A stretch of DNA of 64,000 bases from Trueperaceae bacterium. Lineage in GTDB: Bacteria > Deinococcota > Deinococci > Deinococcales > Trueperaceae. The notes beneath the pieces are model-generated. The model ran no database searches, was not told where the DNA came from, and saw only the letters and a program-made list of their open reading frames with translations. Location: the NCBI GenBank assembly GCA_965213705.1, contig OZ243913.1, positions 2,016,001 through 2,080,000 on the forward strand, written 5' to 3'. Below, piece after piece: positions 45,744 through 49,401 of this stretch (the first letter of the stretch is position 1; every line of letters starts with the position of its first letter). Made by a program: the position numbers and the translations under genes.

Positions 45744-46427
45744 TCAAACCTCACTTGGGCTGTCGCTGGTCAAGGGCGCGAGCGTGACGCGCGCCAAATA
45801 GTTCTGCGGCCCGCGCTTTTGGCCGTACTTTTGGATGAGGGCGTAGAGTTCTTTCTGAAAAGCCTTGGCGTCTTGGAAGGTCAGCGAAAACGTGTACCAA
45901 TCCATGAGCAGGGCCGGCGAGTCGGGCTCGAGGGCGATTTCGTTCAGGGTGCGGCCGTCCTCGGGGGTCGGGGTAACGTCGGTGTAAAGGACGTCGCCTT
46001 CTTGGTAAACGGCCATGCCCCAGCGGTGCAGGTCGGGAAAGGTATCGCTGCCGACTTGCACTAAGCTGTGCGCCAAAAGGCGCTGCCAGGGTTCCTCTTG
46101 CTGGTGCAACAGGGTTTCCAAACTGCTGTCGGGCACGGCTGCGAACGGGACGAAAAAACCGTCTTGGGCGGTCGCGTAGTGTTTGACCGCTCGGCCGCCA
46201 CGTTTCACGGTGCGCGTGACGTGGAGCAGCCCCAACCCGGTAAAACGCTTCGTCCAGTACGACAGCGCGTGTGTGCTCACGCCGAGCAGCATGGCCGCCT
46301 CGCCCAAGCTGCGCTCTCGGCCCATAAACGGCCCGAGGTGCCGCGCCGCCCTGGGGTCGGCGAGCAGTCGGGCCGTACCGGGTTGGTCGACCCGCTCGAG
46401 CGTTCTACGTAAAAGATGTTCACCCAT
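45744..46427 (-). CDS. Putative winged-helix (ArsR-like) transcriptional regulator
   Basis: LGPFMGRERSLGEAAMLLGV..ALSYWTKRF..LGLL..KRGGRAVKHY; divergent from 46524. Confidence 0.65.
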   Translation of the reverse strand: MGEHLLRRTLERVDQPGTARLLADPRAARHLGPFMGRERSLGEAAMLLGVSTHALSYWTKRFTGLGLLHVTRTVKRGGRAVKHYATAQDGFFVPFAAVPDSSLETLLHQQEEPWQRLLAHSLVQVGSDTFPDLHRWGMAVYQEGDVLYTDVTPTPEDGRTLNEIALEPDSPALLMDWYTFSLTFQDAKAFQKELYALIQKYGQKRGPQNYLARVTLAPLTSDSPSEV

Positions 46428-46523
46428 TTTGCCTAGCCTACCTCTATTCTTGAGGTTGAGCGTGAGGTGCGTTCCTTTAGGTAAGAACGGCTCACAAAGG
46501 TTAAACCTCGTAAGGAGGAAATA

Positions 46524-47597
46524 ATGAGTGCAAAAACCGGAACCGTACCGCGGGAGAAAAATGCCGAGCCGGCGGCCGACCTGTGGCGCAGCGGACTGTT
46601 GCCCGTGTTGGCGCTGGGCGCGCTGGCGGGCTTGCTTGGGATTTACTGGGACATCGCCTGGCACATCGACAAGGGGCGCGACAGCTTTTTTACGCCGCCG
46701 CACAACTTCATCTACCTGTCTATTCTTATCGTTTTGCTGATGAGCGTGTACGGGTTGGTTCGTGACCGCCGGCAAAGCCCGCTGCACCTGCGGTTGGGGC
46801 GGTTCCTCGTACATCCGGGCGTGTTGATCGTGGCGGTCGGGGCGGGGTTGGAACTGTTTTTCGCACCCGCCGACGAACTCTGGCACCGCGTCTTCGGCTT
46901 GGACGTGACGCTCTGGGCACCGATGCACCTCATCGGCGTGACCGGCCTGACGCTCTACGCTTTTGGCGGTCTGGTAACGAGCTGGGTCGAGCGGCGCTTG
47001 GCCCTAACCGAGAAACGCAAGCGCCTGTTCGGCTACGTGACCGTGTTCTTCGCGGTGGCGCTCCTCGGTTGGACGATGTTGCTGCTCGCCGAGTTTGAGT
47101 TCGGCACGCCCGCCTTTCCGATGTTTTGGCAACCGCTGCTGCTGATGGGGTTGCCGGTCTTCGTCTTAGTGCTGCTGGCGCGGTTGAAACCCGTTCCTTG
47201 GGCGGCGACCTGGACGGCCGTCGCTTTTACGGGTTTGCGCCTGTTATTGGCGGGCCTGCTGCTCACGACCTCGCGCTTCGACCTGGCCGGGGACAGTCGG
47301 CCGGCGATTCCGCTGCTCGTCTTGTCCGGCGTGGCGGCGGACCTGCTGGTGCGGCGCGGCGCGCCGACGTGGTTGACCGGCTTGGTCGTCGCGGCGGTCA
47401 CGCTGGCGTCCAACCTGCCGCTCACGGCGCTGAGCGAACTGAGCTGGTACGCGGGCGCGCTTGTGCGGGGCGTGCCGGCGGGCTTCGTCCTGGCAATCGT
47501 CATGGCCTACCTCGGGCGGGCGACGGCGGACGCGCTCGAGCCCGCGCCGAACCCAGAGCCCCGCCGCGCCCCGACCGCCGAGCGGGTGCCGGCGTGA
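46524..47597 (+). CDS. Polytopic membrane protein with PmoC/AmoC-like metal-binding motifs
   Basis: WDIAWHIDKGRDSFFTPPH and DELWHRVFGLDVTLWAPMH; AGGAGG ribosome-binding site. Confidence 0.75.
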   Translation: MSAKTGTVPREKNAEPAADLWRSGLLPVLALGALAGLLGIYWDIAWHIDKGRDSFFTPPHNFIYLSILIVLLMSVYGLVRDRRQSPLHLRLGRFLVHPGVLIVAVGAGLELFFAPADELWHRVFGLDVTLWAPMHLIGVTGLTLYAFGGLVTSWVERRLALTEKRKRLFGYVTVFFAVALLGWTMLLLAEFEFGTPAFPMFWQPLLLMGLPVFVLVLLARLKPVPWAATWTAVAFTGLRLLLAGLLLTTSRFDLAGDSRPAIPLLVLSGVAADLLVRRGAPTWLTGLVVAAVTLASNLPLTALSELSWYAGALVRGVPAGFVLAIVMAYLGRATADALEPAPNPEPRRAPTAERVPA

Positions 47598-48151
47598 AGC
47601 GCTTCGGTGCGCTGTTCCTGGCGCTCGTGGTCTCAGCACCGCTGTTCGGGTTCGCCCTGGGCCAAGCCCGACCCGGCAGTACGGCGGACGTTACCGTCGT
47701 TGAGCGCGGGCCAGGCCGGCCGACCCTTATCGAGGTGCGCACCAATCCCGAACTGACCAAAAACGGCGAGATGATGCTCTACATCCGCGGGCGCGACGTG
47801 GGGCACGACCGCGGCTACATCAAGCGGCTCGAGCCGCCCGTCGAGCCGGGGCTGTACCGCTTCGAGGTGACGTTGCCGCACGCGGGCACTTGGGGCGTCA
47901 ACCCGCGCTACGGCGTCGGCCTCGACCTGTACTACGCTTCGTTCAGCGGACATTTCGACCCGGCGGGGAAGGACACGTTCACCTTCCGAACGCGGTTTCG
48001 CGGCGAGTTGGGCGCGGGTACGCCCGCTTACCTCCAACCCCTGGGCTTCGGCATTTTGGGCGTGGTGCTCCTCGTCGCGTTCGGGCTGGTGGTGGCGGTT
48101 TTGCGCTCTTTGGGGCGGCAGGGGGAGTCCGCAACGACTCACCTCGTATAA
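47594..48151 (+). CDS. Exported beta-rich protein with a C-terminal membrane anchor (YtkA/FixH-like motif)
   Basis: GTGA overlap with the upstream stop; signal peptide; PGLYRFEVTLPHAGTW; C-terminal TM helix. Confidence 0.6.
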   Translation: MKRFGALFLALVVSAPLFGFALGQARPGSTADVTVVERGPGRPTLIEVRTNPELTKNGEMMLYIRGRDVGHDRGYIKRLEPPVEPGLYRFEVTLPHAGTWGVNPRYGVGLDLYYASFSGHFDPAGKDTFTFRTRFRGELGAGTPAYLQPLGFGILGVVLLVAFGLVVAVLRSLGRQGESATTHLV

Positions 48152-49401
48152 ACGCGCGTGTCCGGCTTGAAAGCGGCCCAGGCGAACCACAGGGTGTTGT
48201 CGTGGACGACTTTGCTAAGTTGCGCGCCGGCCAGCGGTCCGGCCGTGGCTGCGCCGAGGATGTTCCAAGTGCTGCCGGTTTCCTCGTCGACAAAGGCGTC
48301 CCCGTCCGCTCGGAACGTTAAGTTTCGGCCGTCTAACGTGCGCTCGAACACGCCGACCGCGCCCACGTCGCGGCTCGCGGCGATGCTGGCGGCGTCGAGC
48401 GCGCTCGTCGTCCCGGCCTGCCAAAAGAGGGTCACGGGCGTGTTGCCTATCCTGTCGTTGACGACCCCGGCTTCGCTGAGGGTTTCCACTGGGTAAGCCA
48501 CCGCCTCGGCGGGCGCGTCGATGCTGACGACTCGAGCTTTCGGGGGTAAGCGGCCGTCGGGCGTCCCGGCGAACAAAAAGGCCGGGCTGTCCGCGTCGTC
48601 GTAGCCGACGTAAGGGTTTTGCCCGTAGGCCCGCGTAAAACCGGTATCGCGCGACAACACGTGAGCCTCCGGCGCGGCGGCGCGCGCCTCGGCAAAGCTG
48701 ACAATCTGGGCCGGGTAGCGCAGGAGTTGCGTTCCGCTCAGCGTCCCGACGCTGCCGACGCCCAACAGTTGCGACCAGAGCGTACTCGTTGCAGTATCGA
48801 ACATGAGCAAGTTGGAGTTGTAGAGCGTGCCTGACACGCCGAAGGTGACGGGGAGCAGGGCGGTCACGTTGGCGGCCTCGCCTTGAACCCGGTAGGCCTC
48901 AAGAAACGCCTCATCCGGTTCCGTCGGTGCAGCTTCGGGGTTCATTTCGCTCACTTCGCCTTGCTGTTCGGTCGTCAGCGGTAACCGCCTATCGAAAGCG
49001 AGCGCGCTGTTGCAGAGCGGGCAAAAGGTGACGGCCACCGGCACGCTGCCTACCGTGTCGTTGACGATTTCGTGCCAGGTGAGGATTTGCAGCGGGTAGA
49101 CGCGGGTTTCGCCGTTCAAACTGAACACGATGACGGGCTCCTGGGGCTCTATCCAGTCGGCCGCCTCGCCTTGCGACACGAAAATGGGGGCTTGGGTCGG
49201 CGCGGCGGCGTTTTGCCAGTCGCCCGTAAACCCGAGCGCGGGGATGCCGTTGGGCGGCGGGCCGCCGCTCATGACTTCGGCCAGGGGAATCTCAGCCTGC
49301 GACGTGTCCACGCCGATGGCGCGCAGTTGCGACGGCGTTTGCTGAGCTACGGCGGCACCTAAAAAACTCAGTCCTAGCAGCGTCCGAAAAAGTCTTTTCA
49401 T
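48139..49401 (-). CDS. DUF3179 family secreted protein
   Basis: GGPPPNGIPAL, WHEIVND, TFCPLCNS, LYNSNL, WFAW. Confidence 0.85.
   Translation of the reverse strand: MKRLFRTLLGLSFLGAAVAQQTPSQLRAIGVDTSQAEIPLAEVMSGGPPPNGIPALGFTGDWQNAAAPTQAPIFVSQGEAADWIEPQEPVIVFSLNGETRVYPLQILTWHEIVNDTVGSVPVAVTFCPLCNSALAFDRRLPLTTEQQGEVSEMNPEAAPTEPDEAFLEAYRVQGEAANVTALLPVTFGVSGTLYNSNLLMFDTATSTLWSQLLGVGSVGTLSGTQLLRYPAQIVSFAEARAAAPEAHVLSRDTGFTRAYGQNPYVGYDDADSPAFLFAGTPDGRLPPKARVVSIDAPAEAVAYPVETLSEAGVVNDRIGNTPVTLFWQAGTTSALDAASIAASRDVGAVGVFERTLDGRNLTFRADGDAFVDEETGSTWNILGAATAGPLAGAQLSKVVHDNTLWFAWAAFKPDTRVYTR

Follow-up and report, generated by a model that had tools for sequence, protein, structure and literature searches.

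Two adjacent genes of a Trueperaceae bacterium encode likely distant, reduced relatives of methane- and ammonia-oxidising copper enzymes

Two adjacent genes of a Trueperaceae bacterium (Deinococcota), here called A and B, encode likely distant, reduced relatives of the copper enzymes behind methane and ammonia oxidation. They lie on contig OZ243913.1, in a stretch of 64,000 nucleotides (positions 2,016,001 to 2,080,000) that is referred to below as the window and whose numbering is used for coordinates. Gene A (46524–47597, forward strand) is an intact open reading frame (ORF) of 357 amino acids with ten predicted membrane helices, preceded by a strong ribosome-binding site. Gene B (47594–48151, forward strand) encodes a 185 amino acid protein with a signal peptide, an immunoglobulin (Ig)/fibronectin-III-like domain resembling YtkA and FixH, and a C-terminal anchor helix. 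That their family is a distant relative of the membrane core of the copper membrane monooxygenases (CuMMOs), built as a two-gene unit and falling under the cut-off of every canonical subunit family, is well supported.

The AmoC/PmoC-like half of gene A

By sequence comparison, helices 1–4 of gene A are homologous to AmoC/PmoC, with six ligand positions kept. Residues 25–159 (46596–47000, forward strand) form a four-helix bundle in which helices 1–2 repeat as helices 3–4 with two-fold symmetry (probability 98%, E 5.5e-14). This internal repeat suggests that a helical hairpin was duplicated to give the CuC/CuD pair. Site 1 (46650–46703, forward strand) is CuC-like; its pattern D43-x3-H47-x12-H60 includes the string RDSFFTPPH, which supplies the additional R52-D53 pair. 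Site 2 (46872–46928, forward strand) is CuD-like and reads D117-x3-H121-x13-H135, with APMH at its end and D127 and W131 as further members. Among the 9,024 ORFs of the genome (stop-to-stop, at least 150 amino acids), gene A alone has the double motif at this spacing. A sequence-only reading of the window had described gene A as PmoC/AmoC-like with both copper-site motifs. That description holds for the intact ORF, its matches to C subunits and the places of the motifs, apart from the last base of motif 2, which is 46928 and not 46929. The proposed match of motif 2 to CuD is sound for both histidines and their spacing; the first ligand, however, is Asp117 in gene A and Asn in the seven C subunits compared. 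The extra C-terminal membrane helices that were also predicted are present, six of them following both motifs in an AlphaFold2 model with a mean predicted local distance difference test (pLDDT) score of 93.9.

Gene A has nothing above cut-off in Pfam or NCBIfam, and PF04896 does not match its product at E<=1; the same profile matches 5/62 close family members at E<=0.1 (best E 3.7e-4). The homology emerges with profiles. The top three sequence matches of the family profile in the PDB are AmoC chains (9cl6_C, 9pxf_G and 9leg_C; E 0.003–0.008) with the motifs superposed. Site 1 aligns residue for residue with all three, and site 2 aligns to the NExxH of AmoC/HmoC. For direct comparison a reference set was assembled from metagenome loci (10 archaeal AmoC, 31 AmoA and 30 AmoB) and from four bacterial xmo operons carried on plasmids. 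Every one of the 14 C subunits, whether archaeal or bacterial, is matched at E<=1e-7 by a profile of gene A residues 15–162; among the 9,023 other genome ORFs, used as a control, none does better than E 0.83. In hhalign this half reaches 88.9% with archaeal C subunits and 93.9% with bacterial ones, against 0.08% for a reversed control. The first ligands of sites 1 and 2 are 74 residues apart in gene A and 72–73 in seven C subunits. Archaeal AmoC is likewise short, and its first ligand stands at residue 41–44. The ligands of AmoC given in the available text of PMC12804982 are D136/H140/H153 with D146 for CuC and N207/H211/H225 with E218 for CuD; D53 of gene A sits at the offset of D146. The Methylococcus PmoC ligand numbers quoted in the sequence-only reading were not found in the available text of PMC11725843.

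Conservation was assessed in an alignment of 150 rows, comprising gene A, 38 of 120 listed close matches and 111 of 150 listed representatives picked for breadth. No row departs from the consensus in eight columns: D43, H47, H60, D117, H121, W131, H135 and E190. R52 is kept in 148/150, D127 in 147/150 and D53 in 137/150, and position 192 is acidic in 142/150. Asp at 117 and the His-His spacing of 13 in site 2 occur in 150/150. Part of this invariance stems from selection, because a profile that contains the motifs was used to find the rows. An unrooted tree was built from 34 family rows and eight archaeal and bacterial C subunits, without Ca. Angelarchaeales and Ca. Aerovita sequences; in it the family occupies one side of a long branch (support 100/100), apart from the eight sampled C subunits.

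The C-terminal half and the exported partner

The last six helices of gene A are likely the counterpart of PmoA/AmoA, though the evidence is weaker than for the homology of the N-terminal half. Residues 163–338 (47010–47537, forward strand) form a six-helix domain with a PmoA/AmoA-like or energy-coupling factor (ECF) S-component-like fold. When 999 chains are ranked by structure, PmoA chains take ranks 1–5 and a PmoC chain rank 6. AmoA profiles score two family members at 24.5 and 19.2 bits, against a control maximum of 8.8. The acidic pair E190-x-E192 (47091–47099, forward strand), on the outer face, aligns to the GDxxF/GDWDF of AmoA/PmoA (D47-W-D49 of PmoA, counted from 1yew_B) in a global profile alignment of low probability. 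PmoA resembles S-components in fold, a likeness that is also visible in the structure alignment made here, and S-components fit the six-helix fold of gene A equally well in structure alignments. The suggested resemblance to PmoA is moderately supported.

The same ambiguity of fold allows the C-terminal half to be read as an S-component for a micronutrient, with a metal-binding domain in front. This is the least probable of the readings considered here. Solitary S-components exist, but EcfT/CbiQ (PF02361) has no match in the 98%-complete genome, in a search that matched 11/14 control genomes. Moreover, gene A matches no S-component Pfam family, and no ECF ATPase occurs among the scanned neighbours, 118 script-picked ORFs.

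Genes A and B are inherited together, either adjacent or as one chain. The start of gene B overlaps the stop of gene A (GTGA), gene B directly follows gene A in all 18 close loci that have downstream DNA, and in relatives the two are often fused. The coupled, exported partner of the sequence-only reading is supported. Its YtkA/FixH-like character is also borne out, at sub-threshold level: gene B matches YtkA at E 0.0017 (19.4 bits, cut-off 25.9), and YtkA/FixH profiles reach best E values of 5e-4 and 3e-5 on 16 members of the gene B family. The protein is an exported Ig-like beta-sandwich, a generic fold. Homology to AmoB/PmoB is not detected (hhalign 2.5%); no cupredoxin appears among the listed structural matches, and there is no H-x-H. 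Residues 15–36 contain no histidine, leaving gene B without an N-terminal His, as in 13/19 close partners. No conserved His, Met or Cys is found in its close clade.

Complex prediction pairs the two proteins with a score of 0.91 (best control 0.01), at least 89% contact agreement between runs and a partner pLDDT of at least 83. The mark for this score is reached by 116/157 solved pairs and 2/215 mismatched pairs, counts that hold roughly here. In the predicted complex the gene B anchor sits against helices 3, 4 and 10, and the Ig domain lies over the site-2 loop. The predicted topology places the six ligands and E190 on the outer membrane face. The A-B pair has the domain order C-A-B, that of xmoCAB. 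Gene A had been termed an 'orphan' C subunit; the term does not fit, because the PmoA-like part is likely in the same chain and gene B takes the B place in the order.

Fused members show further arrangements. Their tails (P0160–P0285; L037 1435–2904) contain an internal signal-peptide-like segment ending AxA-HDPGQG, together with two conserved Cys and a conserved Glu; 41/101 fused tails start with HDPG[QF]G behind such a stretch. The segment suggests a cleavage that frees an N-terminal His. Seven fusions are permuted to B-C-A with the Ig-like partner N-terminal (P0223, P0227, P0244, P0249, P0264, P0277 and P0280), and a His follows the signal peptide in 6/7. One partner gene (L027 2514–3062, genome G174) has an in-frame stop near 2879, through assembly error or decay.

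Distribution, neighbourhood and possible functions

A word-indexed search returns 153 proteins (49–97% identity among the 120 matches listed), and an exhaustive profile search returns 2,048 clusters at E<=0.001, 925 of them at E<=1e-10. Language-model neighbours, used as a lead only, are unnamed clusters of Nitrososphaerota, Actinomycetota and Bathyarchaeota. Within Deinococcota the distribution is patchy, with a match in 38/301 genomes, a tally that includes the unpublished genome G251. The statement that the window lacks pmoA and pmoB can be extended: no canonical xmoA, xmoB or xmoC was found in the whole one-contig, 98%-complete genome. In the Pfam searches for these genes the controls were silent, yet PF04896 matched a plasmid with a known hmoC; profiles built from real XmoA/B/C sequences match only gene A in the genome. 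A second Deinococcales subfamily (L038–L048) carries WDxQWHxDVGPD / FDQxWH..SPPH in the four members read, with Pro for the Arg of the R-D loop. It is paired with a signal-Ig-anchor partner of its own, and TetR or two-component genes stand divergent to it; two to four matches occur in several genomes. One close-clade A-B pair (L018 2637–4249) comes from a contig that bears the label Thermoplasmata archaeon, where a gene for a ferric-reductase-like membrane protein is divergent to it. On its plasmid (NC_018022.1; L050 11905–13374, L057 4036–7099), M. chubuense NBB4 carries a fused member in a copper island as well as hmoCAB, about 165 kb apart, and this strain is a ready host for genetics of the family.

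The divergent gene R (45744–46427, reverse strand) is a 227 amino acid ORF with weak MerR/MarR helix-turn-helix matches (E 0.009–0.08) and no Pfam match above cut-off for its family. It is one of five paralogous helix-turn-helix genes in the genome; the four others (32–39% identity) lie near 2967546, 3016826, 3119583 and 3758931 of genome contig C1. R is missing between adh and gene A in a same-genus genome, though both flanks align to the window, so that its presence varies even within the genus. It is divergent in 0/20 close loci with upstream DNA (1.2–6 kb per locus), and among loci L001–L055 a homologue appears only in L004, 1.7 kb upstream and on the gene A strand. The proposed divergent winged-helix regulator is therefore a real divergent ORF that stands outside the conserved unit, and the three-gene unit is not conserved. 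On the other side of the pair, a DUF3179 gene (48139–49401, reverse strand) is convergent with gene B, the two overlapping by 13 bases, and is kept only in the same-genus genome among the loci compared. In two Trueperaceae genomes gene A is immediately preceded by a 520 amino acid lipoprotein-like gene that matches nothing in Pfam (L007 4279–5859; L012 547–2100). Divergent TetR genes, which fit control by a lipophilic molecule, are present at six loci, and two-component genes at four.

The favoured reading, which falls a little short of an even chance, is that genes A and B encode a minimal CuMMO-like enzyme that would activate O2 at a two-metal centre and act on a small lipophilic substrate. 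In this mechanism, proposed from the sequences, the metal would be copper, and helices 5–10 of gene A would take the part of PmoA/AmoA, closing a hydrophobic pocket. Electrons would come from membrane quinol, as has been proposed for ammonia monooxygenase (AMO) in the available text of bioRxiv 10.64898/2026.08.31.748207. Gene B would act as a structural cap and, where it has an N-terminal His, possibly as a copper donor. The substrate would probably be neither methane nor ammonia. The compact layout is plausible because, according to the same text, archaeal AmoC looks like the six-helix bacterial subunit only when two AmoD helices are added, and the cupredoxin domain of AmoB is single.

A bolder form of this proposal, tentative and perhaps true in about one case in three, makes the family a sister branch of the CuMMO superfamily. 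Its thousands of clusters would combine C and A in one chain, with symmetric copper sites and an Ig-like cap in place of PmoB. The present copy, which has no N-terminal His, would be a natural two-gene, CuB-free oxygenase in which CuC/CuD alone carry out C-H or N-H oxidation. The available text of PMC13058606 reports verrucomicrobial particulate methane monooxygenase (pMMO) without CuB ligands, and hydrocarbon monooxygenase that keeps some activity with CuB mutated; both cases also favour the more general oxygenase reading.

Copper trafficking is the strongest competitor, though on balance unlikely. At the outer membrane face the CuC/CuD-like sites would bind, buffer, redox-change or import copper, which gene B would pass to cuproproteins, for instance heme-copper oxidases. 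The weak YtkA/FixH match of gene B is consistent with this, as are the HDPG[QF]G tails described above, and a precedent exists: in the available text of PMC13344008, YtkA domains aid CuA assembly in Bacillus, and YcnJ combines a His-capped CopC with CopD and YtkA. Some neighbourhoods point the same way. A Cu-type P1B-ATPase (CPC, YN and MxxSS motifs) lies beside 2/20 close loci, one of which directly follows copZ and a CsoR-type gene and the other the ATPase itself; a third locus is divergent from ctaA/ctaB/SURF1, and a YtkA gene lies close to one locus. The other neighbours are unrelated. Copper-homeostasis genes also surround 5 of the 8 plasmid relatives examined (from 11 plasmid records carrying one), with one ambiguous and two without, a raw count that is uncorrected for how common copper islands are on actinobacterial plasmids. 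The copper genes at the plasmid relatives and at the 2/20 close loci count for the oxygenase reading as well. Against trafficking, 18/20 close loci have no nearby copper efflux gene, the HMA-domain genes of this genome are about 1 to 2 Mb from gene A, and gene B has neither an N-terminal His nor a conserved His, Met or Cys.

Many plasmid loci also carry envelope genes (lnt, lgt, sortases, NlpC/P60 and M23 peptidases), which would suit a two-metal enzyme using zinc, iron or manganese to modify or hydrolyse a lipid or envelope component. Such a role is improbable. The two symmetric Asp-His-His sites make up a 2-Asp/4-His set of the kind that suits harder metals. However, the only significant relatives of known function are CuMMO C subunits, the close Deinococcota loci show no such envelope genes nearby, and the available text of the Lipocone paper does not mention these proteins under the terms looked for.

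Oxidation of methane, a short alkane or ammonia in the manner of canonical CuMMOs is very unlikely, even though gene A retains the six ligand positions along with the R-D loop and the pair repeats the C-A-B order. The long branch in the tree and the patchy distribution speak against it, as does the setting of the genes: no recurring oxidation-pathway gene is found near family loci, no downstream pathway gene is conserved, and M. chubuense keeps its family member by copper genes, well away from its real hmoCAB.

Significance and comparison with known systems

Among the top matches in the largely open-access literature, no description of a fused C-A family was found, and an earlier mention is possible. 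The word 'fusion' does not occur in the available text of PMC6215863, PMC9038741 or PMC12533140, nor 'monooxygenase' in that of the Lipocone and S-component fold papers. The catalytic copper site of pMMO and AMO, and the need for CuB, are still argued (available text of PMC13058606 and PMC12804982), and these enzymes lose activity outside native membranes (available text of PMC11725843). With a relative that has both C-subunit sites in two genes or one chain, and that comes with or without a His-capped partner, both questions could be tested directly in a laboratory host. If the sister-branch proposal is true, the family offers an easily handled model of the active site of pMMO; if copper trafficking is true, it shows a CuMMO core in a non-catalytic job and a new copper-handling system. 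On either reading a large unannotated family gains a testable assignment.

AmoC, PmoC and HmoC (PF04896; 9cl6_C, 9pxf_G, 9leg_C and 7s4m_C) share with gene A the four-helix core, D-x3-H-x12-H with R-D, and the second site x3-H-x13-H, and archaeal AmoC shares its short N-terminus. Gene A differs in the site-2 Asp for Asn, a clearer two-fold symmetry, six extra helices, a score below the Pfam cut-off and a separate tree branch. The divergent CuMMOs of Ca. Angelarchaeales (PMC9038741) and Ca. Aerovita (PMC12533140), as described in the available text, likewise occur in hosts not known as methane or ammonia oxidisers; unlike gene A, they have separate A, B and C genes, with CuB histidines in Aerovita. 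PmoA/AmoA (PF02461 and PF12942; 7ev9_B, 6cxh_B, 7s4h_B and 3chx_B) resemble the C-terminal half in helix arrangement and, in the global alignment, in colinear motifs (E-x-E-F on D-x-D-F, A-T, and P-x5-A-x3-D). In contrast, this half is fused to a C-like part, has 7–10% structural identity and weak sequence evidence, and is shorter; to judge by the alignment, it lacks the long hairpin region in the periplasm. The ECF S-components (5edl_A, 6zg3_H and 4dve_A) are similar in fold to residues of about 160–350, but in gene A this part is fused to a metal-site domain, and no ECF module is found in the genome or neighbourhood.

AmoB/PmoB (PF04744, archaeal type) have, like gene B, a signal peptide, one beta-sandwich, a C-terminal anchor and the third place in the order, and an N-terminal His is shared with many relatives of gene B. 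Gene B itself is Ig/fibronectin-III-like, without detectable homology, H-x-H or N-terminal His. YtkA/CtaK, FixH/CcoH (PF13115 and PF05751) and YcnJ share its exported Ig-like domain with weak profile matches, and its tied structural matches include CrdA and 9g6b_C (the cbb3 'NOH' chain, taken as CcoH from the title). Gene B differs from these in falling under the cut-off, in the absence of a conserved metal ligand in its close clade, and in being coupled to a PmoC-like protein and not to CopC/CopD or an oxidase operon.
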